A DNA stretch of 32,000 nt from Sulfitobacter sp. SK011 (GTDB lineage Bacteria; Pseudomonadota; Alphaproteobacteria; Rhodobacterales; Rhodobacteraceae): the NCBI RefSeq assembly GCF_003352065.1, contig NZ_CP025803.1, positions 1,683,574 through 1,715,573 of the forward strand, read 5' to 3'. The notes under the pieces are model-generated. The model saw nothing but the letters and a program-made list of their open reading frames with translations. It did not search any database and was not told the DNA's origin. The number at the start of each line of letters is the position of its first letter. Position 1 is the stretch's first letter. The translations under genes and the position numbers were made by a program. Positions 14,205-31,083 of the stretch are shown here, piece by piece.

Positions 14205-15347
14205 ATGCGCGTTACAGCACTTTTGGCGACTGCTGCACTGATCCTTGGTGCACCAGTCCTGACCGATCAGATCACCAACAACACCCATGCTGCGGCCTTT
14301 GCCAAGGGTGGCAACGGCGGCGGTGGCGGCAACGGTGGCGGCGGCGGCGGCAACGGCGGTGGAAATGGTGGCGGCAAAGGGGCCGATAAGGGCGGCAACT
14401 CTGGCGGCAAGAGCGCGGGCAATGGGCGCAGCAAGGCCAACGGCGGCGGCAACGCCAAAAAGTCCTCAGGCCGGTCCATTGCGCGTTCTTCGGGGCAGGG
14501 ATCGAAAGCCTTCAAGTCTCAAGGGAATAAATCTCAAGCCAGCAAGAGTACCCGCAGCAACAGGTCGGTCAAAACCGCGACGACAAACTCAAAGCGGCCT
14601 CCTGAACTGGCACCTCGGACCAAGAACCTGCATTCGCAGCTGAAGGGGCTCAATTCGCTCAATCGCAACATCAACGGATTGATGAATTCATCGGACCCCA
14701 AGATGGAGGGTTTTCGGGATTTCATAGAAGCCAGCGCCGAGAGCGCCGCTGCGGAGGTGGCTTTGGAAGAGGCGATTGCGAACTATGCAACGCTTTCGGA
14801 TAACCTTGCACAATCGCTGGACCTGCTGGGCCTCGACGTGCCGACAACGCAGGACGAATTCGACGCGCTGTCAGCCACGATTGCCGACATTGCGAACACC
14901 CCGGCACCGCAAGAAGCTGACTTTACCGCTGCCGATGGCACTGTTGATCTGGACGCCTATGACAAAGCGGTATCCGAGTGGACCGGTGATGTGACCGCGG
15001 CCACCGCGGCACTGGGTCAGGTCGACGCAACCAGTGCCGGTTTCTCTGCCCTGCAGGATGCCGAGACAGAGGTCGAGACGACAGCCATCGCATCTTCGGA
15101 AGAGGCGATGATTGATGCCATTGTGGCGGGCATGAACGCCACCGGTAACACCACCTACACCGCCGAGGATATCACGCCCGAGATGGTTGATTGGGTTGGT
15201 GAAAAACTTGGGGTTGGTGAGGATCAGACCGGACTGATTGACGATTATATCGCGAAGCAGGACGAACCGGAGGTCACGGCCGCCACCACACCGGAGGATG
15301 ATGAAATCCTACCCGTCGATGAGACCACATTGGTCTTGGCCGACTAA
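14205..15347 (+). CDS. Secreted low-complexity protein (Gly/Asn-rich, then basic Ser/Lys-rich, then acidic C-terminal half)
   Basis: Signal peptide MRVTALLATAALILGAPVL, with GGAG upstream of the start. It is a long ORF between purB and a strong terminator. I recognise no family. Confidence 0.55.
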   Translation: MRVTALLATAALILGAPVLTDQITNNTHAAAFAKGGNGGGGGNGGGGGGNGGGNGGGKGADKGGNSGGKSAGNGRSKANGGGNAKKSSGRSIARSSGQGSKAFKSQGNKSQASKSTRSNRSVKTATTNSKRPPELAPRTKNLHSQLKGLNSLNRNINGLMNSSDPKMEGFRDFIEASAESAAAEVALEEAIANYATLSDNLAQSLDLLGLDVPTTQDEFDALSATIADIANTPAPQEADFTAADGTVDLDAYDKAVSEWTGDVTAATAALGQVDATSAGFSALQDAETEVETTAIASSEEAMIDAIVAGMNATGNTTYTAEDITPEMVDWVGEKLGVGEDQTGLIDDYIAKQDEPEVTAATTPEDDEILPVDETTLVLAD

Positions 15348-18379: not shown

Positions 18380-18584
18380 AGGCTCAGCGGCTAAGAGATT
18401 GGATTAATGAAGAAAATGGGTTCTGTGATGTGGCTGTATCACGTCGGTATTGCGTCGGTGGCTTTGGTTTGTTGGGGGCGGGTTAAGGGGCGTGCGGTGG
18501 TTTGGATGAAACTTCTCGATGCAACGATATTTGTCTAATTCGGCCCAAACCGGACCTTCAAGCAGTTTGCGGCTAAAGGCAGGT

Positions 18585-18815
18585 TTGAGCCGATTGTGTT
18601 GAAAAACCCCGTTATTGACGAAAATCGAAAAATTTTTCGCCTTAGAGAGTGACCAACTTTTGGAGGCGAGGGGGTCGGCCAATTTGGCCGGCTGCGGCTC
18701 CTGTGCCCGCACTATGCCTCTTACGGTCGATCTGTTCTGACTTTTGGGCTTAATGGGCAGCTGCGCAAAAATCGCGGATTTCAAATTTCAGAGTTTTTCA
18801 ACACAATCAGCCCTT
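18585..18815. repeat. Inverted pair of the GATTGTGTTGAAAAAC repeat (arms about 18585-18640 and 18760-18815)
   Basis: The exact 16-mer is at 18592-18607 and its reverse complement is at 18793-18808. Flanking similarity extends about 50 bp on each arm. A third copy sits at 30282-30297. Confidence 0.6.
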
Positions 18816-19125
18816 ACCGGAAGTGCTCTCGCTCCGCCTTTCGCGGGTGCAGCAAACTGTTTGCCAAAGCCATCAGCCGCGACGCAGCAAGAAAAGCGGA
18901 CGTTCAGTCACAGCGCAGCGAGATTTGGAATGCCGATGTCTGAGTTGCGGACCGCGCAGAGACCAGAAATTAGGCTTCACAAACAAAGGAATAGGTCAGC
19001 ATCCTAAGTTCACTGAGCCCCCTGAGTTGATTTTTTGTCATCTCCTTGGCTGCAGCACCGAACAATATCCGCGTTGTTGGAGAAAGTGATTTTTCGGGCT
19101 TGGCCTGCTCCGTTCTCTCTTTGAG

Positions 19126-19791
19126 TCAATTGTAGCATTCCAAAGTAGAATCCATTTCGTGAATGATACGGAAACCAGCAGGCAACAAATGCTTAGACAT
19201 CTCCTCTGGTGTCGCGAGATGACTGATCGATGGTTCCGAAGCCCATGGCGCCGGATACAGCACGTCGCCGCCTTCTCCTTGCAGAATATCATAGATTCCA
19301 AATCGTGTGCCGGGTTTGAGAACGCGCCGTGCCTCAGTATAGATCGCAGCCTTGTTTGGGATGTTCATTGCAACGTGAACAGTCAAGGCACCATCGAAAT
19401 GATTTTTTGGAAATGGGAGGTTTGTTGCATCGCCCTGAATGAACTCTGTTTTGTCGCTCAGATTGACCCAGTCGGAAATTGCCGTTCCCACATCACAAAA
19501 CTCTTGGGTCAAATCCACCCCAGTTACATGGACACCCGCTTCTGCTGCCAATGTTCTGGCCACGCCGCCCAAGCCACTTCCAATATCCAAGACCTTCGAT
19601 TTGGGAGCCAGCCGCAAGTGCCCCAGCAGCTGAAGGGTCGCCTCGCGTCCTCGAAAATGAAACTCGTCTATGGATTCAAATTCTGAAGCGCTCAGCTCAT
19701 CTGGCTCGAATCCAGCTTCACGCAGATCACGTGCGATCTTATCGACCAAACCTCCACCGCCGCTGTAATGAGTTGACACGGGTTCAGGCAT
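19126..19791 (-). CDS. Class I SAM-dependent methyltransferase
   Basis: SAM-binding motif I VLDIGSGLGGVARTLA. AGGAG lies 9 nt upstream of the ATG at 19791. Confidence 0.8.
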   Translation of the reverse strand: MPEPVSTHYSGGGGLVDKIARDLREAGFEPDELSASEFESIDEFHFRGREATLQLLGHLRLAPKSKVLDIGSGLGGVARTLAAEAGVHVTGVDLTQEFCDVGTAISDWVNLSDKTEFIQGDATNLPFPKNHFDGALTVHVAMNIPNKAAIYTEARRVLKPGTRFGIYDILQGEGGDVLYPAPWASEPSISHLATPEEMSKHLLPAGFRIIHEMDSTLECYN

Positions 19792-19870
19792 CTGCCGATC
19801 TCCTTCCCGCGCTCTCAGGCTGCAATTTTCTCGACACTTGCCAGAGGCGAAGGGGAGACGTCACAGCGGC

Positions 19871-20392
19871 TTACCAAGGTTTCTCACCCTGTGTCGCCCA
19901 GACGTCTATAAAGTTGTCCCGATTGGGCATTTGCACTGACGGAAGCGTGTCCGCTGTCATGGCCGTGCCTTCGTCTATGATGCCGTTTCGCTCAAGTATG
20001 AACGCAGCCAATGCATAGACCTCGTCATCAGTAAGCGATTTTGGTGCATCGAGTGGCATGGCGCGTCGGATGTAGTCGAAGAGTGTCGTGGCATAGGGCC
20101 AATGCTTGCCCACCGACTTTGGCCAAATCTCGTTCGGCCAAACCGGTGGCATGACTGGGCCTTCCGTGCCGGTCGCGCCATGACAGTTCGTGCATTGGGC
20201 GGCATAAATCTCCGCCCCTTCGACAGCGGTTCCGCTGCCCCCCGGAAGACCACGCCCATCGGGCATGACATAGGTCGCATAAAAAGGCACTTCGTCCGGT
20301 GACAACGGCTGCCCCAAATCCGGTCCTTCGGCGAGAGAGGCGGTGGCAGTCAGAACGGCAAACCCGAATAGTGAAAGCTTAGATGTAGACAT
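19871..20392 (-). CDS. Monoheme c-type cytochrome, partner subunit of sulfite dehydrogenase (SorB/SoxD-like)
   Basis: Signal peptide MSTSKLSLFGFAVLTATASLA and a single CTNCH heme site. The ATG at 20392 overlaps the upstream gene's end by 14 nt. Confidence 0.75.
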   Translation of the reverse strand: MSTSKLSLFGFAVLTATASLAEGPDLGQPLSPDEVPFYATYVMPDGRGLPGGSGTAVEGAEIYAAQCTNCHGATGTEGPVMPPVWPNEIWPKSVGKHWPYATTLFDYIRRAMPLDAPKSLTDDEVYALAAFILERNGIIDEGTAMTADTLPSVQMPNRDNFIDVWATQGEKPW

Positions 20393-21671
20393 TCTGAACC
20401 GCTCCTTCTGCTGTGATTTGCCAAGGCTGAATGGCGTTGTAGTGGAGAAAGTTCGACGGATCGTACCTCGCCTTCCAATCCGTCCTTGTCGGCTGAACTG
20501 CACCTGTCTCATCCGTTGCGCGGCTCATGAGTACCAACGGCGCGCCGTCCCAACGCCAGGGCAACCGGAACCGGGTGAGCGCGCGCGGATGGACGGGCCC
20601 CTCCAACGCCGCCTCGGCCCAGCTTTGTCCACCGTCGGCGGAGACCTCTACGCGTTCGACCTTGCCCACACCGGACCAAGCGAGCCCGGATATTTCGTAA
20701 AACCCCGGACCATTCATCGTCATGGTGGATGAGGGATGCGTGATAAACGACTTCACACCAATTGCGAAAGTGAACTTTACAGATGAACCGTCGGCAAGGA
20801 TTTCAGTGTACTCCCCCGACTCGTGTTTAGTGTAGGCTGGCGCGTCAGTGACCCAAAGGCTCGTTAGCCACTTGACGTTCATATTCCCCTCGAAACCGGG
20901 CAGAAGCAGACGCATCGGGTATCCTTGCTCTGGCCGTATACGTTCACCGTTCTGGTAGAGCGCGATAATTCCGTCTTCCATGATTTTCTCGATTGGGATC
21001 GATCTGGCAAGTGCAGGTCCGTCGCTGCCCACAGCCACGACCCAGGTCCCTTCAGGCTTCACGCCCGCCTCGTCCATCAGGGCCGACAGTGGCACACCCG
21101 TCCATTCGGAGTTCGACAGCAGGCCATGCAGCATGTCGCATCCGGCCTGCATTGGTTCAGGCATTATGGCGTTGAAGAGGCTATTGCCGGCGCATTCCAG
21201 AAAGTGTGTCGCAGTAACCTTTGGGTAGCGTTCGAGCGCATCCAAATCGAATTTCAGCGAGCGGTCGACAAGACCATGCACCATTAACCTGTGGCTCGAG
21301 GGGTCTACATCGGGTCTCCCGCCGTGATGGACTTCAAAATGCAGTCCGCTCGGAGTTATTGTGCCCTGCAGGCGGTGATGTGGCGTGCCGGAAAGACTGA
21401 ATGCCGCGGCTACATCCTGCCATGGCTCGATAATAGCGCGCTGGACCTCGGCTTCAGCTTCCGCAGGCACCCCGTACCCGCGCGCGCGTTCGCCAGAGAT
21501 CGTAACCCAGTCAGGAATTGTGGCCTCTGCAGCAGCTCGTGTCGACGATGTTAATCCGGCCGCAACGGCCCCTGTTCCAAATAATGTACTTTTCAGCACG
21601 AGACGCCTGCTAAGCAAACCGCCACCGGCAACAAACTCGTGTTCTGCACCGTTACTTGTGTATCGATTCAT
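20379..21671 (-). CDS. Sulfite dehydrogenase molybdopterin subunit (SorA/SoxC family)
   Basis: Twin-arginine signal (LLSRRLVLKSTLF), followed by a sulfite-oxidase-type Moco domain and dimerisation domain. It is translationally coupled to a cytochrome c gene. Confidence 0.85.
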   Translation of the reverse strand: MNRYTSNGAEHEFVAGGGLLSRRLVLKSTLFGTGAVAAGLTSSTRAAAEATIPDWVTISGERARGYGVPAEAEAEVQRAIIEPWQDVAAAFSLSGTPHHRLQGTITPSGLHFEVHHGGRPDVDPSSHRLMVHGLVDRSLKFDLDALERYPKVTATHFLECAGNSLFNAIMPEPMQAGCDMLHGLLSNSEWTGVPLSALMDEAGVKPEGTWVVAVGSDGPALARSIPIEKIMEDGIIALYQNGERIRPEQGYPMRLLLPGFEGNMNVKWLTSLWVTDAPAYTKHESGEYTEILADGSSVKFTFAIGVKSFITHPSSTMTMNGPGFYEISGLAWSGVGKVERVEVSADGGQSWAEAALEGPVHPRALTRFRLPWRWDGAPLVLMSRATDETGAVQPTRTDWKARYDPSNFLHYNAIQPWQITAEGAVQNVYI

Positions 21672-21822
21672 TGATACGGCCCCCTAAAATTGCTTGCATA
21701 AACTGCTCGCACTGGGCCTCAACACTTGCGATCTGTCCAACCGCTTAGAACCATTCTAACACAAAAAGCTCGATTTTTTAAGGGCGCAGTTTACGCAAGC
21801 GAAATCTGAACTTTAGCTGCGT

Positions 21823-22094
21823 CCGCATGTGAGACATAGAACGAGAGCGCAGTGAATGGCCGGAATAGGGTTCGGTCGATTTGCAGAGTTTGAATGTCCG
21901 ATTTAGTGAAATCGTGCGGCGCCGCCGCGGGCAATGCCGCGATACGATTAAGCAATCACGGTGATTTTCGCTGCGCCAGCATCAGGCAGCTCCGTCCCGC
22001 ATCTGACGAGTTCATGTGCCGGGCAGCGGAAGTCGGCAAACCCCCGGAACCAGTTAATCGTGCTAAACGAAGCGAAGGTTCCCGCAGAGCCCAA
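21823..22094 (+). repeat. Two tandem copies of the ~100-nt hairpin repeat (weak copy 21823-21990; clear copy U2b 21991-22094)
   Basis: Hand alignment to the units at 22933, 23919 and 26630. The consensus is GTCCGCATCTGAC..AGTTCA..CAGCGAAAG.CGGCAAACCC..GTCACTCGTG..GCAGCGAAGGT..GAAGAGCCCAA. Confidence 0.5.
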
Positions 22095-22203
22095 ATAGAC
22101 ATCACAGCAAACGGGCTTGCCGGGCATTAAACGATTACGTTTAATAGTGGGGCCACAGCGCGGGCGGGGTCCAAGGGAGATCTTCATTATGCCGACTACA
22201 TTG
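22087..22203 (+). repeat. 117-bp direct repeat, copy 1 (promoter region plus the first 5 codons of the binding-protein gene)
   Basis: Identical to 25305-25421 except for one base (T at 22147 versus C at 25365). Confidence 0.92.
22117..22145 (+). promoter_or_regulatory. Candidate sigma70-type promoter TTGCCG-17 nt-TTTAAT overlapped by the palindrome ATTAAACG-ATTA-CGTTTAAT (22126-22145)
   Basis: The hexamers and 17-nt spacing were read directly. A perfect 8+8 bp inverted repeat covers the spacer and -10. It lies 43 nt upstream of the ATG at 22189, which has a GGGAG RBS. Confidence 0.4.
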
Positions 22204-22881
22204 CGCATGTTCGTTCCTGCGGCGATCCGGGCTGTCATGGACCGCCTCACGCCGCGCTTAGAAGCCGAGACAGGCGTGCGGCTCATACAAGAGGTTGAGC
22301 TTAACCCACTGATACCGAAACGGATCAGAGCTGGTGAGCCTTATGACATTGGCCTGACCAATCCACCTTATGCGAAGGCCTTGATCGTTGACGGATTTGC
22401 AGACGGCGACAGCCACCGTGCATTCGGGCGTGTCTCACTTGCGGTTGCGCGCAAGGGCGTGGCGAATGGCCAAATAATAGCGGACTCACATGGTATCGAA
22501 GCGCTTCTCCGCAGCGCAAAAAGCATAGCCTATACAGGCGCTGGGACGAGCGGACGCACCTATCTGGATGTGATGGAGCGCATGGGACTGACTGACTCCG
22601 TCTTGCCGCAAAGTTATGCGGTGGCTGGGGGCGTGCCCGCGGTGACGGTCGCGACTGGCGAATACGAGCTTGCAATTGCCCCTCTCACAACAGTGATTGC
22701 CACGCCCGGAGTCGTTCCCGCAGCCGTGTTCCCGGAACACCTTGGGACACATATAGACATGTCGGTATTTCGGACCGCCGCATCACCAACAGCCGCGGCA
22801 ACAGTGATTGACATCCTAACCGATCACGATCTCGACGATGAACTCGCTGCGGCGGGAATTGCGCGTTTTCAACTGATCTGA
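22189..22881 (+). CDS. ModA-like (SBP_bac_11 type) substrate-binding domain protein without a signal peptide
   Basis: 230 aa from the ATG at 22189. The layout is a type-2 periplasmic-binding fold resembling the molybdate/tungstate binders, including SIAYTGAGTSGRTYLDVM. No N-terminal hydrophobic leader is present. Confidence 0.6.
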   Translation: MPTTLRMFVPAAIRAVMDRLTPRLEAETGVRLIQEVELNPLIPKRIRAGEPYDIGLTNPPYAKALIVDGFADGDSHRAFGRVSLAVARKGVANGQIIADSHGIEALLRSAKSIAYTGAGTSGRTYLDVMERMGLTDSVLPQSYAVAGGVPAVTVATGEYELAIAPLTTVIATPGVVPAAVFPEHLGTHIDMSVFRTAASPTAAATVIDILTDHDLDDELAAAGIARFQLI

Positions 22882-22932
22882 TTGCGTTTTGGGCTTCCGG
22901 CAAAATTGCGCACTGATAGGAGAGGCCTGTAA

Positions 22933-23040
22933 GTCCGCATCGTCCGCATCTGACCAGTTCAGGCGGATTGTAGCGAAAGCCGGCAAACCCTGGAACCCGT
23001 CACTCGTGAAACACGCAGCGAATGTTATCGAAGAGCCCAA
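22933..23040 (+). repeat. Hairpin repeat unit U3
   Basis: By eye about 70% identical to U2b over about 105 nt. It begins with a 9-bp tandem duplication, GTCCGCATC GTCCGCATC. Confidence 0.55.
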
Positions 23041-23140
23041 CCTACTGAATGCTGCGTCATACTCAGATGTCGCCTTTGGTGACATACCTTTCAGGTATGC
23101 GTCTGTTCCTGCTATTGTGTGGGTCAGGAGGGATGTTTCT

Positions 23141-23812
23141 ATGAGTAGAATTGCATTCGAAATGCGGGACCAGATGGATGACATGTCGGAAGCCGATTTC
23201 GAAGACACCATGGGCTTGAGTAAATCTGAATTCCGCGACTACCTAAGATCGGCTGCAGACCAAGAGGATAAGTGCCTTGCGCAAGAGGGCGAACCTGCAC
23301 CCAATTTTGCCGCTCACACTCTGAACGCCGAAGGAAGTATCTCTTCCGGACTTCTGGACCTTTCCGATCTTCGTGGCGCTCCTGTCTCGCTGATATTTGG
23401 GTGCTACACATGCCCGGTTTTCCGTCGCCAATCAGATAGGATGAAGCAACTGATTGAGCACTACGGTGGACGGGTTCAGTTCGTTTTTGTCTATGTGTTG
23501 GAGGCGCATCCAACAGATGGATGGAACACTGATTCAAACAGAGCGACCGGAGTAATGTATGCCCAGACCATCAATTTGGAGGACCGTGCCAAAGTAGCCA
23601 ATGACTGGCGAAGCGCATACGAATTCGAGAATCCGGTTGTGCTTGATTGGCCAGACAATCGAATAAACGCGGATTATGCTGGAGAACCAGAACGGCTTTA
23701 TGTGCTGGACGGTGACGGCATCGTGACGTTCAAATCGGAACAGGGGCCATACTACGATAGCCATCTCGAGGACTGGGCCGCCGCCCTAGAAAATGTCGTC
23801 CGCTCAAATTAG
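23141..23812 (+). CDS. Thioredoxin-fold protein of the iodothyronine-deiodinase-like family (Cys-type)
   Basis: ATG at 23141, about 8 nt after CAGGAGGGA. The active-site-like motif LIFGCYTCPVFR resembles the deiodinase FGS-x-T-U/C-P-x-F. The upstream part of track ORF 22889-23812 covers repeat U3 and is rejected. Confidence 0.55.
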   Translation: MSRIAFEMRDQMDDMSEADFEDTMGLSKSEFRDYLRSAADQEDKCLAQEGEPAPNFAAHTLNAEGSISSGLLDLSDLRGAPVSLIFGCYTCPVFRRQSDRMKQLIEHYGGRVQFVFVYVLEAHPTDGWNTDSNRATGVMYAQTINLEDRAKVANDWRSAYEFENPVVLDWPDNRINADYAGEPERLYVLDGDGIVTFKSEQGPYYDSHLEDWAAALENVVRSN

Positions 23813-23918
23813 GCAAACTTGCATCCGCGAAGTCCCTGGGTCTCAATATTCACAGACGGCCAATTTGCCTCACAACCCGGAACCAGCCATTGGTATGACC
23901 AAGTCGCATGGCCGTTTC

Positions 23919-24017
23919 GTCCTGCATCTGTCGGGTTCGAACACGATGCAGCGAAAGCCCGGTTCTCTCAAACTTGCCGTTCATCCTCGGCGCAGCGAAG
24001 GTGTCGGAAGAGCCCAA
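23919..24017 (+). repeat. Hairpin repeat unit U4
   Basis: Alignable to U2b/U3/U5. The 5' hairpin arms are CTGCATC / GATGCAG. Confidence 0.5.
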
Positions 24018-24136
24018 TGCGGGCTTAAATTCAGTTCTTTGCACAGGTGTTGTTGGGACCGGATTTCCCTGGCAGGCTGCTTTGTGAAACAGTGTGCCAT
24101 CATACTACCCAAGCGATTTTTTTCATCGGAGTGCCT

Positions 24137-25186
24137 ATGGAACGCAAACTGGCCGCGATCTTGGCTACAGACATCGTCGGATTTGCAGGGCTCGTTTCAC
24201 GTGACGAGAGTGGAACGCTTGAAAAGCTAGAGCGTCTCAGCCGTGATGTCATCGGCATGCAGGTCGAAGCCAACAGAGGTCGCGTGTTTAAGTCAACTGG
24301 TGACGGGTTTCTGGCCGAATTTTCGAGCACACAGGAAGCGGTGAACTGTGCTTTCGGAATTCAAAGCATATTGGCACTGGAAGCACTTCGTTCAAAAACG
24401 GATGACCACCTGTTACTTCGCATTGGCGTTTCGATGGGCGACGTTGTGGTGCAGGGAGACGATCTACTGGGCGAAGGGGTCAATACCGCAGCCCGACTTG
24501 AAGCGATGGCGGAACCGGGCGGTATCGCCGTTTCCAGCGAAGTGATGTCGCAAATACGGGACAAAATCGACCTGCCACTCGAAGACTGTGGTCACAAGCG
24601 CCTGAAAAGCACCGACGCTCCGATACACGTATTTATGACGCGATCAAAAACTGGTGGCACGGGGGGATTTCTGGACTTCGATGAAAACGAATTGGCAACG
24701 ACGCTCATTAAGGGCGGCTGCCTATGTGGATCCATTAGATTTGAAGTGAATGCACCAGCAATCAGCACCGGATATTGCCATTGCAGATGTTGCCAGAAAT
24801 TTTCCGGGTCGGCAGTCAACGCGTGGACCGCCTTTCCGGCATCCGCGGTTCGGTTTCTAGACAAGGAGCCCTCCTATTTTGCTTCCTCGCCAATCGCAAA
24901 ACGAGGCTTTTGTTCCGAATGTGGAACAAGCCTAACGTACAAGCTATTTCAGCCGAAAGAGACAGCGTTTCTGGTTTTGCACACATCAAGTCTCGACGAG
25001 CCAGAAAACTATCCGCCAGCCGTCCACTCTGGAATGGAAAGCAAATTGCCGTGGTTTGATATCATGGATGATTTGCCTCGAACGCGGTCTGCTGACTCCA
25101 GAGTATTGCAGGAAGCATGGTCGAGCGTTGGCTTGCCTGACCCGGAGTCGTGGGGCCCTTGGGCAAAAACTCCTGAAGTATTCTAG
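24137..25186 (+). CDS. Class III adenylate/guanylate cyclase catalytic domain fused to a GFA (glutathione-dependent formaldehyde-activating / CENP-V-like) zinc domain
   Basis: Cyclase motifs: AAILATDIVGFAGL, KSTGDGFLAEF and RIGVSMGDVV..GEGVNTAARLE. The C-terminal part has GGCLCGSIRFEV...CHCRCCQKFSGS...FCSECGTSL. The ATG at 24137 follows GGAG. Confidence 0.8.
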   Translation: MERKLAAILATDIVGFAGLVSRDESGTLEKLERLSRDVIGMQVEANRGRVFKSTGDGFLAEFSSTQEAVNCAFGIQSILALEALRSKTDDHLLLRIGVSMGDVVVQGDDLLGEGVNTAARLEAMAEPGGIAVSSEVMSQIRDKIDLPLEDCGHKRLKSTDAPIHVFMTRSKTGGTGGFLDFDENELATTLIKGGCLCGSIRFEVNAPAISTGYCHCRCCQKFSGSAVNAWTAFPASAVRFLDKEPSYFASSPIAKRGFCSECGTSLTYKLFQPKETAFLVLHTSSLDEPENYPPAVHSGMESKLPWFDIMDDLPRTRSADSRVLQEAWSSVGLPDPESWGPWAKTPEVF

Positions 25187-25304
25187 CCGAAGTCAGTCTT
25201 GGAGCCAGTGTTGCAGCGACCCGTTGAAACCACACCGCAGAGCGGTCGCCTGGAGCTCCCAAGCTACGAAAAATGCCTGACCAATTTCGTCAGATGACCG
25301 CAAT

Positions 25305-25421
25305 GAGCCCAAATAGACATCACAGCAAACGGGCTTGCCGGGCATTAAACGATTACGTTTAATAGCGGGGCCACAGCGCGGGCGGGGTCCAAGGGAGATC
25401 TTCATTATGCCGACTACATTG
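25305..25421 (+). repeat. 117-bp direct repeat, copy 2 (orphan promoter/palindrome/RBS plus ATG CCG ACT ACA TTG, then TGG TAA)
   Basis: 116 of 117 bases are identical to 22087-22203. The palindrome is at 25344-25363. Confidence 0.92.
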
Positions 25422-25525
25422 TGGTAACTTGCATTGGGTGGCTCCTCTCATAAGCAGTTCATGTCAACTGCACTATGGCGCATTGCGACGCCGGTTGAAG
25501 CAGGAGCCATCCACCCCATCCCGCA
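25418..25525 (-). mobile_element. Orphan 5' end of an IS110-family element (non-coding leader plus the first about 6 codons, MQVTTI), recombinase body missing
   Basis: Reverse complement aligns with the leaders upstream of both IS110 recombinase genes (28605-28693 and 30188-30275). This includes the start-codon context GGAGCCACCCA-ATG and the first codons ATG CAA GTT ACC ACA AT. Confidence 0.7.
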
Positions 25526-25829
25526 CGTTACCCGTTCGCGGTCGGCACTATTTTGCGTTCGCGGCGAACGACCGGTTCGACGGGCCGCACCGCAGCATCA
25601 AACTCGCGAGGTGAACGGCAGCAAGGGGCCGGTCCTGTCGGTCCAAGTCGGCGTCGTTTTCAGCTTTATGCCGCAATGCGGAAGGCGGCTACGAGCCCTT
25701 TCCAGTCGTGTCTCGGCGGCTTCATTTCGCAGTTGCGGCAAGCTGGTCGCCATCGCTTGGATGCCTGCCAATATCGTGAGGCCGAGCGGTGTCGGCCGAG
25801 ACAATCGCCCGCCACCATGCCGAAGTCAC

Positions 25830-26480
25830 TTAACCGGCTTCCAAATCCGAAATTCGCTCGGCAAACAAGTTTTTCAGGACCGCCGACAAGGCTTCATTCC
25901 GCAAGACGCGCTGCATTTCAATCACATTTCTCTGGCCAAAAAAACGAAGCCGGTGAACTTCTTCAACACTGGGGGCTGTTTCGTCCGTTTTCACACGTTC
26001 GATATTGTTTCCGGCCTCAATCGTGCCTTCCTGAAGCACACGAAGATAGAATCCGGTTTTTGCAGTGGATATACAGGTTTCGAGTGCTTTGGATGAACCC
26101 AATTTCACCCCGAATTTATAGCAGGGCATACGTGGCATCGTAACCTCAAACACAGCCCGACCAACGCTGAACTGGTCGCCAATACGCACTTCGCTCTCGA
26201 CCAACCCCTCGGTAGTCAAGTTCTCGCCAAAGTGTCCGTGCTCAAACGGCTCTTGCCCATAGAGGTCATTGTAAAATGAATAATGTTCAATCGGCGATGC
26301 GAGAACCGCTTTGTCGGGGCCACCATGCGCCTTTAGGTTGGCCTGTTCATCTCCGTCGATATTAGTTCGGCGCACCATGCACAGGCCGCCAATTGGCTTT
26401 TTGTGGATGGCCGTGGGTACATCCTTGCCCATGTGCCGGATCATTCTTGGTTTGCCAATACTGATTGCCAGAACGCGCAT
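25830..26480 (-). CDS. MOSC domain protein (YiiM-like)
   Basis: ATG at 26480 preceded by GGAGAAAGA. The MOSC beta-barrel pattern is present (GDEQANLKAHGGPDKAV...GENLTTEGL...RIGD...EVTMPRMPCYKF) with a C-terminal helical extension. Confidence 0.8.
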   Translation of the reverse strand: MRVLAISIGKPRMIRHMGKDVPTAIHKKPIGGLCMVRRTNIDGDEQANLKAHGGPDKAVLASPIEHYSFYNDLYGQEPFEHGHFGENLTTEGLVESEVRIGDQFSVGRAVFEVTMPRMPCYKFGVKLGSSKALETCISTAKTGFYLRVLQEGTIEAGNNIERVKTDETAPSVEEVHRLRFFGQRNVIEMQRVLRNEALSAVLKNLFAERISDLEAG

Positions 26481-26629
26481 TCTTTCTCCAATCCCGGCAC
26501 ATAAAGAGGGCCGATCTGAGTGACTGCATATCACAGTTTGCACCCGCAAAGAATGGCAGCCACCGGCACAAAGTCGTGTGCTGTCCGGACGAAACCTGAA
26601 TTTTGGTGACCGCAGCGAACGGCAGGATA

Positions 26630-26730
26630 GTCCGCTTCATACCAGTTCAAGCGTAGCGCGGAGAAAGGTCCGCAAACCCCCGAAGCGGTCACTCGTGCAA
26701 TATGCAACGAAGGCCACCGAAGAGCCCGAA
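26630..26730 (+). repeat. Hairpin repeat unit U5
   Basis: Alignable to U2b/U3/U4 (..CGCAAACCCCCGAAGCGGTCACTCGTG..GCAACGAAGGCCACCGAAGAGCCCGAA). It has the same orientation although the flanking genes are on the minus strand. Confidence 0.5.
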
Positions 26731-26763
26731 GTTACCGACCTGAATCCTGTCTTCGGTAAGAGA

Positions 26764-27324
26764 TTATCTGAGGGCTGAGTCCATGCCAATGGAAGAGATG
26801 AGCTCGTAGTAGCCAAAGATGACCATTAGGAAAAAGGCGAAGAGTATGAGCTCATGCTTGAAGTGGTGGGAGTGAAAAAATTTTCTGTCGCGATGATGAA
26901 TGACATCCATCAATTCGTCGCCAAAGCGTATCGACAAAAAAGTACCTAAGCCTGACAACAGAATGACCCCCCAATAGGGAAACGGATTTGTGAATATTGT
27001 GTACAGCAGTTCGGTGAGGATCGTTGTGTCATAGTAGCTCGGGCCTAACAGAAATGTTGCAGCGTTTATGCCAAAGGCAACGATCCAAACGGCTATTTCC
27101 GAAATTACCATGCGAATACCGAATAGCAATCGGAGTGGAAAATCCAAGAGAAATCCTGCGTCGGCTATCGGCGTGCACAAAACAAAGAAACTCCACGTCA
27201 GCAAAGCCGCGATGCCGCCGGTTGCGACATCGTATTCGTAGGCCAGATACGCAAAATAGCCGACTAGAAGACCGCATAGGAGAATGAACTTGAAGAGTAC
27301 TTGTGAGTGCGGTTTTGCCGTCAT
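26764..27324 (-). CDS. Hypothetical integral membrane protein (about 5 TM segments, His-rich loop HHRDRKFFHSHHFKHE)
   Basis: 186-aa ORF from the ATG at 27324, with several clearly hydrophobic segments. GC is lower than in the backbone. No family recognised. Confidence 0.5.
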   Translation of the reverse strand: MTAKPHSQVLFKFILLCGLLVGYFAYLAYEYDVATGGIAALLTWSFFVLCTPIADAGFLLDFPLRLLFGIRMVISEIAVWIVAFGINAATFLLGPSYYDTTILTELLYTIFTNPFPYWGVILLSGLGTFLSIRFGDELMDVIHHRDRKFFHSHHFKHELILFAFFLMVIFGYYELISSIGMDSALR

Positions 27325-28604
27325 GATGATGCCTTTGTGCAATCTTCAAAGGCGGTGTATTGAATTACTTTCGGACGGTCCACAAACGATCGTTTCGCGT
27401 TGCAGCAATTTTAGCCTTAATAAAAACCCGCTGAGCTGTAATTTCCTCGCTGGCGGTTACACTGCAATGACCGGAAAGTCCGCGTTACAGTCCTTGCCCG
27501 CTCAAAGTTGAGGCGGCTCCTCGCCCGCTACGACAGTCCAAAAGGCCATTCTGCGGTCTAGCCACGAAGAACCTCAATGGAGACATACGCTGGCTCGAGG
27601 TGCGCCTTGCTGGCATGACACCCGCGGCACTTATTGGACCGCACAATACGCGGACACACCCTATTTTTTGACAAATGTGATCTGGTTCACAGACAAACGC
27701 CGAAGCGCATTGTAGTACCATTTAAAAGAAACACGGCATCAACCTCGGAGAACCAGAAAATGCAACGCCGCAAACAAATTCATACCCAGAGACTCAGTCA
27801 GCCATCAGGCTACCCCAACTCATTCGGACGGCAGGTGTTTGAACGCATTCTCAACGCCATACGCCAGAGCATCGAGATCCAGTTGAAGGTGAGCCAATAT
27901 CACTGACGGTTGGTGAGCAAGAAGTTCGTCTCATACCAAAAGCAGAGGCGAGGGCCCTGACTCTGTCGGATATCTGTAAGAGTATCTGTAGAGTCCTTTT
28001 TTTTGGGTTAAATATCTGAGTGAATCCAGACAATACCCAGAAGATATACCCTACCTAATTTTTTCCTTTCAAGGGCTCCGGAGATCTTTTTTTGCTCTGT
28101 ATCTCGTTGGCCGTAGCCGCTGGCGCAATCCTCATAACGGAAATCCAGACCTCCAGTTAGTGCTTACACAAGGCCAGGATCAAACGACCGGTAGCCAATT
28201 TGCTAACAATCAGTTCCAATTATTTCCCAAAATGCCACAATTTCTACGATACGCCGCCGCTTTTCCATGAGAGGCACAACTGTGCAACGCATGCAAGGAT
28301 CTGGGCAATGATGGTAGCTGGCAAGTTCATTCTGACACGTATCGAAATTCATGCTGTATCGCTACGTGCAGTAAATTATGCACACGAACCATATGGATCA
28401 CCTGCAGCTCATCTGCGTCGTCTGCTTAATATTGGACGTGGTGAGCAGCCAGGAGGTTCCTTTGGAAGGGCGATGGCAGCGCAGTCAAATTTTTCCAGCG
28501 GCTCCACCGCTGAGATGGATCGGAACCTCTAAACAGGTCACGTTTGCAACGACAGCACCTGCCCATAGAGCAGACACTGGGGAAAAACACGGCCATGACC
28601 GAGT

Positions 28605-29407
28605 TGCGGATGGAGTGGATGGCGTCTGCACCCAACCGTCACGCAACGTGGCATAGTGCAGATGTTTTCATCAGCTAGGAACGGAGCCCCATCATGGAAG
28701 TTACGACAATAGGATTGGATTTTGGTAAGGACGTCTTCCAAGTTCACGGTATCACCGCTGACGGTACAGTTGTTTTCAATCGAACAATTCGACGCCGACA
28801 GTTGCTCAATTTCTTTGAGACGCTGCCGCGCAGTCTTGTCGGTATTGAGGCGTGCGGATCAGCCCATCATTGGGCGCGTGAGTTGATTGAGATTGGTCAC
28901 GATGTGCGCCTAATGCCTGCCGTCTATGTGAAGCCATATGTGAAGCGTGGCAAAACAGATGCGGTTGATGCGGAAGCGATTTGCGAGGCAGTTACGCGAC
29001 CGACGATGCGCTTTGTCGCTGTAAAGTCGAAAGAACAACAGGCCCTGCTGACCATTCATCGGGTGCGCCAGCTCGTTGTCCGTCAGAAAACTCAGATGTT
29101 GAACGTGATCTGGGGTCTTCTTCGGGAGTTTGGCCACGTGATCGGCAACGGACCGGTTGCTGCGATGCGCTTCATCAAAGCTTTTGAAACCGATGATTGT
29201 CCAGATATTCCTGACGTGGCGAAGAGTATGCTCAAGACGCTTTGTGATCAGGTTGTTGCTCTCGATGACCGGGTCGCCTTCTATGACAAGTTGATCAAGT
29301 ATCATGCCAGGATCGACGAGCGCGCCAAACGGATAAGGACAGTGCCAGGCGTCGGCCCCATCACGGCCTCAGCCATCGTGGCCACCATCGGTGATGGCAA
29401 GACGTTC
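28605..29407 (+). mobile_element. IS110-family element, 3'-truncated (leader 28605-28693 plus recombinase fragment)
   Basis: The leader is homologous to the other two copies. The coding part is described in the pseudogene entry. Confidence 0.8.
28694..29407 (+). pseudogene. IS110-family (DEDD/RuvC-like) recombinase, truncated after ...VPGVGPITASAIVATIGDGKTF
   Basis: N-terminal DEDD domain motifs (IGLDFGKD, GIEACGSAHHW, KTDAVDAEAI). The ORF tail LAAAGFVERGQPQPCR is the antisense of the other copy, so the C-terminal catalytic domain is missing. Confidence 0.8.
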
Positions 29408-30187
29408 CTTGCCGCCGCTGGATTTGTTGAGAGGGGTCAACCCCAGCCATGCCGCTAGATCGCGCCCTGTCCGAAACTGATGCGCGTCACCGATTGTGGC
29501 GACAATCGCCGATGCCGTGACCGGCCCAATGCCAGGCATGCGCATTAATCGACGTGCATCTGAGTTCAGCATTGCGTGTTGCTCTATCATCTTGGAATAG
29601 CCAGAGATGCGTTCGTTCATGCCGATGAATTGGTAGCACTGGATGCCCAGCATGCCGTTCGCGATGTCGGGCATGTCCAGGTGATCACCTTCATGGTGAC
29701 GCTTTGCAAAAGCCGTAACTGCTTCGATCCCAATCGGCAAAACATGCCCAAACTCGCGCAACAGGCTGCGGATCATGTTGGCCAATTGGGTGCGTTGCCG
29801 GACTGCCAAATCCCGGGTGCGATGGATCGACAATATAGCCTGTTGATCTTCAGTCTTGATCTCAACAAACCGCATAGTCGGGCGTCTGACGGCCTCACAA
29901 ATGGCTTCAGCATCAACGGCGTCGCTCTTGCCGCGCTTCACATAGGGTTTTACATATCCAGCGGGCATGAGCTTCACTTCGTGCCCTAATTTGCGCAGTT
30001 GGCGGCCCCAGTGATGGGACGATCCGCAGGCTTCCATGCCAACCCTGCACGGTGGCAGCGCCTCAAAGAATGACAGCAGCTTCGCGCGCTTGATCGCCTT
30101 GTTGAAAACAACGCGGCCATTCTCCGAAATTCCGTGCACTTGAAATACGTCCTTGGCCAAATCTAGGCCGACTGTCTTAACTGTCAT
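29399..30187 (-). pseudogene. Second, different IS110-family recombinase, truncated after ...LGLTPLNKSSGGKERL
   Basis: MTVKTVGLDLAKD..., GMEACGSSHHW and KSDAVDAEAI. By eye it is roughly 60% identical to the plus-strand copy. About the last 70 aa expected for the family are absent, and the ORF tail AITDGGHDG is antisense of the other copy. Confidence 0.8.
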
Positions 30188-30275
30188 TGGGTGGCTCCTT
30201 TCCTAGCAGTTGGTGATAACTGCACTTTGGCACATTCGATGCCGGTGGAGCAGGAGCCACCCACCTCATCCGCTT
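30188..30275 (-). ncRNA. Structured 5' non-coding leader of the IS110-family element (bridge-RNA-type region, candidate)
   Basis: Perfect 12-bp stem TGGGTGGCTCCT (30188-30199) / AGGAGCCACCCA (30252-30263) encloses 52 nt. The region is conserved in two other copies. IS110-group elements are known to encode their guide RNA in this position. Confidence 0.4.
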
Positions 30276-30276
30276 A

Positions 30277-30335
30277 GGGCTGATTTTGTTGAAAAACTTT
30301 GTTTTTGGGTCAGAATCTCAATTTTGCTCGCCGTA
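30277..30335. repeat. Third copy of the GATTGTGTTGAAAAAC repeat (GGGCTGATTTTGTTGAAAAACTTTG...), abutting the IS leader
   Basis: Aligns with the reverse complement of 18760-18815 (GGGCTGATTGTGTTGAAAAACTCTG...). Confidence 0.55.
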
Positions 30336-30659
30336 CGGGCCTTCGTGCCGGATCTCGACAGGCATCTAGCAGCCTGCGATCTTGCGCTTGTGCAAGGCGG
30401 TCTGACGACATGCATGGAACTCGCCGCTGCCGCTACGCCGTTTCTGTACTTCCCACTCCGAAACCATTTCGAGCAGAACTTTCACGTCGCCAGCCGTCTG
30501 GACAGATACAACGCGGGACGAAAAATGATCTTCTCGGAATCTGATCCAGAAGCCATTGCGGAGGCAATGGTAACCGAGCTGAAGAGCCCGCGGGGAGCAA
30601 ACCCGGTGGCAAGTGACGGCGCAAGCCGCGCAGCGAGAATGCTGGCGGAATTGCTATAG
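30330..30659 (+). pseudogene. C-terminal fragment of a GT-B fold glycosyltransferase (MGT/MurG-like)
   Basis: Only about the last 110 aa are present (FVPDLDRHLAACDLALVQGGLTTCMELAAAATPFLYFPLRNHFEQNFHVASRL...). The upstream in-frame sequence is repeat and IS leader, not glycosyltransferase. Confidence 0.5.
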
Positions 30660-31083
30660 ACCTACGGAATGCTGGCCCTTGCTCTTTCAAGGAAAGGGAC
30701 CTTTGTACAAATTGCAATGTAGGTCCACTTCCCGCCATATGCTGCAGCATCTGCCACTTCGGGCTCTTATTGCTGCCGTTAGCTGCAAGATGCTCTGAGG
30801 TCCGCTCTGCGTGACAATGCGGACTTGTGCAGGTGCAGTTAGTGTTGAAGTGGAAAACCTTCACTCTTGAAGCATCGGTCAATTGGCAGCGCAGCACGGT
30901 TCATCGAACCGGTCGTTCAGCCGCTTCAATCTGAGCATTCCACAAACTGATCGTTCGCTGCAGTTTAGCTGAACAATCGAGACAGCGGTTAAACCAGCCT
31001 GATGTGCTTGGACCATAGTTTCTCTAATTTCTATGCTAGGAAAGTAAGCGTGGAGCGACGGTCTAAACGTAGAAGGCCCGAGT

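Follow-up and report, generated by a model that had tools for sequence, protein, structure and literature searches.

The classic device by which single genes are stockpiled and shuffled is the integron: co-oriented sites lie between short, mostly one-gene modules, the same module turns up in different arrays with its breakpoint at a short conserved core at the site edge, and arrays without a recombinase exist (clusters of attC sites lacking integrases, CALINs). Integrons have been reported to be entirely absent from Alphaproteobacteria (PMC9668308). Here we analyse a 32,000-nt stretch of the chromosome of the alphaproteobacterium Sulfitobacter sp. SK011 (the window), whose accessory island carries an array of ~105-nt intergenic repeats, which we call units, between blocks of genes, which we call modules. 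Comparison with other genomes bears out the core idea of a first-pass annotation of this DNA, namely that it is a repeat-delimited, co-oriented array of exchangeable blocks and not an integron. Judging from these sequence comparisons, the units very probably mark the ends of discrete, horizontally exchanged gene modules. On balance we favour reading them as the boundary sites of an exchangeable-module array, itself without a recombinase, that would belong to an undescribed site-specific system.

Other described systems share parts of this layout. The pdif modules of Acinetobacter plasmids depend on XerC and XerD and are bounded by 28-bp XerC–spacer–XerD sites in alternating orientation; like the modules described here, they hold one to a few genes (including toxin–antitoxin pairs) bounded by short sites, and are reassorted among plasmids with breakpoints at the sites. 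Mosaic intergenic repeats, such as the bacterial interspersed mosaic elements and repetitive extragenic palindromes of E. coli (BIME/REP), the rhizobial intergenic mosaic elements (RIMEs) and the neisserial intergenic mosaic elements (NIMEs) with dRS3, resemble the units in being extragenic, in their recombining sub-motifs and frequent partial copies, and in acting as targets or anchors of mobile elements; in Neisseria, the short repeats flanking variable segments are also integrase targets. Finally, in TnpI with its internal recombination site (IRS), Cre/loxP and ResD/rfsF, a small tyrosine recombinase is encoded beside its own site, as is the candidate enzyme described below. Inter-replicon recombination at such a recombinase-adjacent site would conserve one flank and make the other variable.

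For roseobacters, an 'interchangeable gene cassette' has been noted on a plasmid, with no mechanism given, and a term search of the report returned no mention of recombinase, integrase or recombination repeats (PMC6789725). Our literature searches found no description of the unit repeat or of a module-exchange system.

Co-oriented units in an accessory island

A profile built from the four clear unit copies recovers exactly those four in the window, all on the plus strand, with nhmmer E values of 1e-27 to 5e-31; the next best match has E = 0.36. Each copy carries one conserved hexamer near either edge:

21985–22098, plus strand: unit U2b (nhmmer E 9e-31), with GTCCCGC at 21994–22000 and GAGCCC at 22087–22092
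22933–23043, plus strand: unit U3 (nhmmer E 5e-31), with GTCCGC at 22942–22947, a second copy at 22933–22938, and GAGCCC at 23033–23038
23910–24020, plus strand: unit U4 (nhmmer E 1.5e-27), with GTCCTGC at 23919–23925 and GAGCCC at 24010–24015
26621–26733, plus strand: unit U5 (nhmmer E 1.2e-27), with GTCCGC at 26630–26635 and GAGCCC at 26722–26727

A 26-nt signature of the unit 3′ end likewise has 4 matches in the window against 0.03 expected. All four units lie in the island and none in the window's 18 kb of core genes; all are intergenic, and their orientation is independent of the strand of the flanking genes. With 24 invariant columns across 15 units, conservation is at the level of sequence, and the motif GCAGCGAA recurs at ~46-nt spacing. 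We dropped the possibility that the unit is a coding sequence, as there are stop codons and frame shifts in all six frames.

These results confirm the four same-orientation copies singled out by the first-pass annotation, whose plus-strand consensus was essentially right. Its five 'weaker copies' did not survive: all have E > 0.3 with the 4-unit profile and escape even a profile iterated on 28 relatives, and two of them coincide with short junction motifs (25296–25310 and 27466–27483). The proposed spacings of 0.94 and 0.99 kb stand, with one gene each, but the rule of one gene per interval fails between U4 and U5, where a cyclase–GFA fusion gene, a 117-nt duplicate from a binding-protein module, an IS110 5′ fragment and a MOSC gene share one interval.

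Units also occur well beyond this strain. An exact scan with the 3′ signature, covering one genome per species, returned 54 loci, about half of them chance matches in unrelated phyla and ~25 from Rhodobacterales, including Sulfitobacter, Yoonia, Planktotalea, Roseobacter, Loktanella, Roseovarius and others. Profile searches found full-length units in the Rhodobacterales loci, often with a second or third unit within the 8-kb locus. Roseobacter plasmids carry units too (~5 copies on one complete 134-kb plasmid); blastn of U2b against plasmids gave no match, but other units did match. The family thus spans many genera, chromosomes and plasmids. It is a mosaic family, in that 5′ and 3′ halves occur alone, and units inside one genome can be 95–100% identical. 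Among non-redundant neighbouring units ≤10 kb apart in all collected sequence (1.33 Mb), 14 of 15 pairs are co-oriented (p = 5e-4), in line with the uniform orientation proposed earlier; such neighbours lie 0.7–5.3 kb apart and enclose one or a few genes, on either strand.

Gene modules with fixed ends

Two stretches between units in the window recur elsewhere with the same ends (L-numbers are our labels for individual loci):

22087–22949, plus strand: module M1, a ModA-like solute-binding protein (Pfam SBP_bac_11; gene 22189–22881), with its own conserved ends
23033–23925, plus strand: module M2, a deiodinase-like protein (Pfam; gene ends at 23812), recurring in L058–L061

M1 is 88–91% identical to its counterparts in L066, L069 and L070, and all three alignments start at 22087 and end at 22928–22949. 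Its surroundings there are a trypsin-like protease in one case, cytochrome oxidase genes in another and a phage-like region in the third; none of these contexts has a neighbouring gene in common with the window or, beyond the module, with the other two. Identity is 77–88% inside the ends and 45–57% outside. M2 is 97.5% identical to the metagenomic contig L058 and 93.6% identical to three further such contigs, L059–L061, with flanks at the random level. Its upstream neighbour differs: in the window it is the binding-protein gene with U3, in L059 a methyltransferase with a quite dissimilar unit, and in L058 DNA that is not unit sequence. This gives four unrelated contexts for the binding-protein module and three for the deiodinase-like one, with breakpoints at unit edges, as expected from the cassette shuffling that the first-pass annotation had envisaged.

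The breaks are sharp. In seven pairwise comparisons, the 60 nt just inside module ends are 77–98% identical and the 60 nt just outside 45–58%, against 54% for random 60-mers. Every left break lies at GAGCCC, which is the upstream unit's last conserved hexamer; right breaks lie at GTCC(C/T)GC, the downstream unit's first, with a single exception 17 nt earlier (L066). In more than ten comparisons in which both sides of the junction are readable, homology stops at the edge hexamers of the unit and never in its interior. Conservation is highest in this interior and exceeds that of the module ends. That breaks nevertheless fall at the edge hexamers is our main argument against homologous recombination between passive repeats.

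Such recombination is part of a rival explanation in which a passive mosaic intergenic repeat (of the REP/BIME, RIME or NIME kind) builds up in accessory DNA, as in the mundane alternative of the first-pass annotation, and rearrangements arise by homologous or illegitimate recombination between its dispersed copies. The mosaic composition of the family, with halves that occur alone, fits this explanation, as do its spread over many genera, chromosomes and plasmids, the presence of both orientations on one plasmid and the lack of a recombinase in the window; units 95–100% identical within a genome would also suffice for homologous recombination. It does not explain why breakpoints always lie at the edge hexamers and never in the interior, which would be the best substrate. 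Modules also occur in contexts where the flanking units are unalignable and so offer no substrate for homologous recombination, and the co-orientation of neighbouring units (14 of 15) speaks against it as well. We consider a passive repeat unlikely, and from these comparisons the exchange is probably site-specific rather than homologous.

The remainder of the array can be read on the same scheme, with probable later damage:

24010–25304, plus strand: module M3, an adenylate/guanylate cyclase–GFA fusion (Pfam; gene 24047–25186), with boundaries placed from the hexamers only
25296–25310, plus strand: unit-less junction GACCGC-AAT-GAGCCC, in which a right-end-type arm directly abuts the GAGCCC core
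25305–25421, plus strand: duplicate of the first 117 nt of M1, 99% identical to 22087–22203, starting with GAGCCCAA and ending at codon 5 (repeat search, blastn)
25421–25521, minus strand: IS110-family 5′ fragment (upstream region and 5 codons), joined to the 117-nt duplicate and 82% identical to 30178–30271
25830–26549, minus strand: MOSC-domain gene (Pfam), in a segment that ends with the arm GCAGCGAACGGCAGGATA just before U5
26722–27483, plus strand: module M5, a 192-aa membrane protein (gene 26764–27342, minus strand), with boundaries placed from motifs

On this reading, the window runs from left to right: a SorA trio (ending at 22000), U2b, M1, U3, M2, U4, the cyclase–GFA fusion, the unit-less junction at 25305, the M1 duplicate, the IS110 5′ fragment, the MOSC gene, U5 and the membrane-protein module to 27483. 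The unit-less architecture is shared by L066, L069 and L070, where it forms the left end of the binding-protein module. At 25305 it opens a second binding-protein module start, which is broken at codon 5 against the IS110 5′ fragment. M5 runs from U5's GAGCCC through AATGACCGGAAAGTCCGC (27466–27483). For terminal inverted repeats of the gene modules we found only a loose resemblance by eye, and automated extraction was unreliable; we do not claim them.

Alternative contents of one plasmid slot

Four near-identical Sulfitobacter plasmid backbones share one slot, bounded by hipA...GCAGCGAATGCTACAGAAGAGCCCAA and GTCCGC-TTCTTTCCCC (also written hipA...GAAGAGCCCAA and GTCCGC-TTCTTTCC). In S. indolifex and strain HGT1 it is occupied by an ankyrin gene and in strain SK025 by a GNAT gene; in S. 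pontiacus it contains the ankyrin gene followed by a full unit and a 4.2-kb block of four genes (LuxR regulator, ornithine cyclodeaminase, aminotransferase and an enzyme of the dihydrodipicolinate synthase (DHDPS) family). This block is 100% identical on the plasmid of another strain, where its two ends match and its neighbours differ (L055 28970–33133; L064 6834–10997). Its full identity in two Sulfitobacter strains from different oceans points to a very recent transfer. In S. pontiacus, the additional DNA lies between direct copies of GTCCGC, the footprint expected if a circle with one unit recombined with the resident site, and exchange may accordingly involve circular intermediates. Segments that are otherwise 99–100% identical meet in seven left/right combinations at GTCCGC, and the hipA-linked GAGCCC has at least four different right-hand partners across five genomes.

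Junction anatomy and a proposed mechanism

Each hexamer is strictly tied to its right-hand arm. The unit-type start NNCTTACCAGTTC is preceded 24 times by GTCCGC, TCCCGC or TCCTGC and never by GAGCCC, whereas the commonest module start, ..TGACCGATGCTGC, is preceded 36 times by GAGCCC and never by GTCCGC. We therefore rejected a single-site model with interchangeable hexamers. A module opens at its left end with GAGCCC and closes at its right end with an arm such as GAATGGCAGCTTT followed by GTCC(C/T)GC, where the unit begins; a looser right-end arm, GAA(T/C)G(G/A)CNGCNNN, can abut GAGCCC directly with no unit between. Hexamer variants beside the recombinase gene described below also travel with the right-hand side, which would place the crossover at or just 5′ of the hexamer.

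We propose that modules, together with the units between them, may be inserted, deleted and replaced through conservative site-specific recombination, and that a crossover at or just 5′ of the edge hexamers would yield head-to-tail, co-oriented arrays. The catalyst would be a 210-aa tyrosine recombinase consisting of the catalytic domain only, itself carried as a module and acting in trans. The window would then be a recombinase-less, CALIN-like array, damaged later through IS110 activity.

A different account makes the unit itself the mobile entity: a small non-autonomous element that inserts at module junctions, perhaps in a strand-specific way (single-strand or HUH-type), so that its own insertion bias would produce co-orientation and clustering. 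Near-identical units do sit in different flanks in Yoonia and Loktanella (L005, L022, L032), and in two Sulfitobacter plasmids one unit interior has different neighbours on both sides; junctions without a unit exist, and the unit is better conserved than the module ends. Yet this account leaves unexplained the fixed module ends found in unrelated contexts with or without an adjoining unit. The unit, whose two ends are GTCCGC... and ...GAGCCCAA, has no terminal inverted repeat, no target duplication in its flanks and no subterminal hairpins, and the same lack of inverted ends and target duplication led us to reject a MITE (miniature inverted-repeat transposable element) as its identity. The uninterrupted target of the expected form, a palindromic 'empty target' with GTCCGC directly followed by GAGCCC, was not found in 0.64 Mb; junctions with a 3-nt spacer do occur. 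A self-inserting unit is, in our estimate, distinctly improbable.

A candidate tyrosine recombinase

Two loci retrieved by the unit signature alone (L004 and L045) encode a 210-aa tyrosine recombinase, as does the S. pontiacus plasmid, in two copies; we located its gene at 7075–7707 in L056 and 36626–37255 in L057, as well as in L004, L045 and L071–L152. The protein comprises little more than the catalytic domain (Pfam Phage_integrase, 1.4e-17), with the catalytic signature LRGCD, HSLRR, GHT and RY. It scores 23.9 bits against the 265-bit cut-off of the integron-integrase model TIGR02249 and falls far under the XerC/D cut-offs, and the closest solved structure, XerD, is distant (E 1e-4). The family counts at least 7,944 clusters at 90% identity with E ≤ 1e-40, found on plasmids and on 3.6–3.9-Mb chromosomes in Ruegeria, Leisingera, Roseovarius, Yoonia, Phaeobacter and others; members are 85–95% identical to each other. 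It appears not to have been studied so far.

We examined the context of the recombinase gene in 80 metagenomic loci. In 40 of the 63 with enough flank, GAGCCC lies 74–77 nt past the stop codon, preceded by a conserved inverted repeat, TTGGCGAACGG-n5-GCCGTTCGCCAA (also written GGCGAACGG-n5-CCGTTCGCC). The gene is physically linked to a hypervariable junction at this core: 28 of 40 locus pairs that are at least 90% identical in the 60 nt before it fall below 65% in the 60 nt after it, and the loci form 16 sequence clusters before the core and 37 after. This is the pattern of one conserved and one variable flank that inter-replicon recombination at a site of the TnpI/IRS kind would leave. Downstream of the recombinase, 17 units are co-oriented and 1 is opposed (upstream, 10 versus 6), and several contigs read recombinase, core, gene, unit, gene, unit. 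A tyrosine recombinase gene beside a site, followed by hypervariable content and co-oriented sites, is also the arrangement of an integron.

The recombinase gene itself appears in cassette position. Downstream of RidA, one ...GGGTGT|GAGCCC site with a 98% identical left flank is followed by the recombinase cassette on one plasmid and by the 4.2-kb LuxR block on the other, and it is this alternative content that places the gene among the cassettes. The upstream boundary of the recombinase cassette is heterogeneous. As a separate observation, two Sulfitobacter plasmids and one Leisingera chromosome carry a divergent WYL-regulator/RidA gene pair beside the recombinase gene or its site (L057 34950–36152, L064 11291–12493 and L151 10761–11963).

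From these associations we infer a link between the recombinase and the window array. That the 210-aa enzyme catalyses module exchange is a candidate assignment that we hold tentatively, at somewhat less than even chances. Several points weigh against it and against the broader interpretation. All support is comparative. Two different hexamers ~90 nt apart serve as junctions, which one simple core site would not explain, and the three homologous ~46-nt sub-repeats that might be read into the unit are weakly supported (z = 5.4, 3.7 and 0.3). The 32-kb window encodes no tyrosine recombinase of any type. A detectable unit is present in only 26 of the 80 recombinase loci, units near the recombinase are not clearly denser than in the roseobacter plasmid background (~1 per 18 kb versus ~1 per 22 kb), and many of these loci may share plasmid backbones and are thus not independent. 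Distant copies on the complete 134-kb plasmid lie in both orientations, so that co-orientation is a local property.

Tests for RNA structure and integron sites

The first-pass annotation had described a 5′ hairpin with compensatory changes in the units and took it to suggest selection on structure. Across 15 units from 11 genomes, RNAalifold predicts 0 consensus pairs, and single window copies fold no better than shuffles on either strand (z −1.7 to +1.1). Only 67% of cells are paired in the helix named there; for the structure tested, which combined it with a second helix that we added, covariation is not above shuffled or slid controls. The apparent compensation arises because copies pair in different registers. 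The hairpin is thus not upheld, and the argument for selection on structure falls with it, the units being conserved as sequence. A second, 3′ hairpin (GCAGC with GCTGC) was discarded after finding no support in the covariation test.

These results also bear on the idea that the unit is a structured RNA element, such as a terminator, a 3′-UTR (untranslated region) stabiliser or a small RNA, repeated after genes. The intergenic position of the units and the 5′ hairpin reported earlier for some copies would suit it. However, there are 0 Rfam matches at the gathering score and, at E ≤ 1, only a chance match to an internal ribosome entry site (IRES; E 0.1); a tRNA scan returned nothing. There is no consensus structure or covariation, folding energies equal those of shuffles, and unit orientation does not depend on the strand of flanking genes. 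Terminator-like or promoter-like signals in the units are not enriched above chance in a scan that was itself uninformative. We give an RNA element very little credence.

Still less probability attaches to a true integron remnant, a CALIN with degenerate attC sites. The window does have a co-oriented array with roughly one gene per interval and no integrase, but RYYYAAC...GTTRRRY core pairs number 0 on either strand in 18400–31000, with ~2 expected in shuffles, the sites form no hairpin and are conserved in sequence, and the genes lie on both strands, in a class reported to lack integrons altogether (PMC9668308). The earlier statements that the array has no attC features and no integrase therefore hold: none of the window open reading frames (ORFs) scanned matches Phage_integrase, and tblastn with the small recombinase finds none in the window. 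Despite this, the window holds three IS110-family transposase remnants. No dif-like 28-mer is present in the window at up to 9 mismatches.

The co-oriented array with recurring cassettes is accordingly a functional resemblance to integrons and not membership. It differs from an integron or CALIN in that there is no IntI (not required in a CALIN) and the candidate enzyme has 210 aa and a catalytic domain only; the sites lack R and L boxes and a hairpin and have two junction hexamers ~90 nt apart, genes lie on either strand, and the recombinase is itself carried as a module. Unlike pdif modules, this array has no dif-like 28-mer, its co-oriented sites lie inside a ~105-nt composite repeat, and the family occurs on chromosomes as well as plasmids. 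In contrast to BIMEs, RIMEs and NIMEs, the units are not palindromic stem-loops, neighbouring units are co-oriented, and their edges are the ends of mobile gene modules. Unlike TnpI/IRS, Cre/loxP and ResD/rfsF, related sites are arrayed between cargo genes, far from the recombinase and on chromosomes, and the recombinase gene occupies a cassette position.

Gene content and other features of the island

The left 18 kb of the window consists of core genes (secDF, ccmABC, aconitase, lipid A acyltransferase, fliG and an adenylosuccinate-lyase-like gene). From ~18.6 kb on, G+C content drops from ~0.60 to 0.49–0.56 and gene content is accessory; the repeat array sits in this island of the SK011 chromosome. 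In order, the accessory genes encode a methyltransferase, a cytochrome c and a SorA-like molybdoenzyme (all on the minus strand), the ModA-like solute-binding protein, the deiodinase-like protein, the cyclase–GFA fusion, the MOSC protein, the membrane protein (which has no Pfam match), two truncated convergent IS110-family transposases, a glycosyltransferase fragment and a TPR protein. Features outside the modules listed above are:

18582–18818, strand not applicable: MITE-like element with ~35-nt inverted ends G(A/G)GC(C/T)GATTGTGTTGAAAAAC (inverted repeat)
19126–21671, minus strand: methyltransferase, cytochrome c and SorA-like molybdoenzyme, left of U2b (Pfam)
28606–30273: two truncated, convergent IS110-family transposase copies, 28694–29458 on the plus strand and 29369–30187 on the minus strand (Pfam, plasmid matches, blastn)

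The segment with the SorA trio has as its right end the arm CAGGCAGCTCC before GTCCCGC; its left end is undefined. The first-pass annotation took the genes between units to be functionally unrelated, which now looks doubtful. Relatives conserve the pairing of a methyltransferase gene with the deiodinase-like gene directly downstream of it (L059 2382–4145; L062 9003–10672), and SorA, the ModA-like binder and MOSC have a molybdenum theme in common (Pfam). There are hints here of an island with a molybdenum or sulfur/selenium redox function, not a set of unrelated genes. In the window, the S-adenosylmethionine (SAM) methyltransferase gene (19126–19791) and the deiodinase-like gene (~23140–23812) are separated and inverted.

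The MITE-like element at 18582–18818 is placed at the boundary between core genes and lower-G+C accessory DNA. A third copy of its end lies at 30269–30307, abutting the IS110 left end, and further copies occur in L005, L108, L129, L130 and L143. In L108 and L129 the MITE-like end directly follows the recombinase-linked core; its terminus thus mimics the GAGCC core.

The window IS110 copies match IS110 transposases on roseobacter plasmids, and the two truncated transposase genes overlap at 29369–29458. IS110 elements encode a guide RNA in their upstream non-coding region; this region is common to 25425–25521 and 30178–30271, which are 82% identical. Just past the IS110 left end, 30210–30659 encodes an orphan C-terminal fragment of a family-28 glycosyltransferase, a gene probably truncated by IS110 insertion. 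Elsewhere in the window, an ORF at 14205–15347 without a Pfam match contains GGC/AAC-rich 9–12-nt tandem repeats (14307–14454), which would encode a Gly/Asn-rich stretch.

Implications

More tentatively, the window may be one example of a wider phenomenon. Roseobacteraceae could possess an undescribed, integron-analogous exchange system in which a ~1-kb autonomous cassette (the 210-aa recombinase plus a GAGCCC-core site) would mobilise in trans thousands of non-autonomous cassettes of 1–4 genes with common conserved ends, stacked head to tail between ~105-nt composite sites on chromosomes and plasmids; the window would then be one recombinase-less chromosomal array. We regard this full proposal as possible, though short of probable. 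Module ends, cores and a candidate enzyme are now specified, which makes the idea directly testable.

Few marine bacteria are as abundant, or have genomes as plastic, as the roseobacters, and the arrangement described here, which we class with site-bounded gene cassette arrays, is widespread in this important marine group. If the proposal is correct, this plasticity would be explained by a separate system of sites and recombinase through which modules of one to a few genes pass between chromosome and plasmid. Such a system would represent a second, independent solution to the cassette problem, and its defined sequence signature would allow marine metagenomes to be searched for accessory genes.

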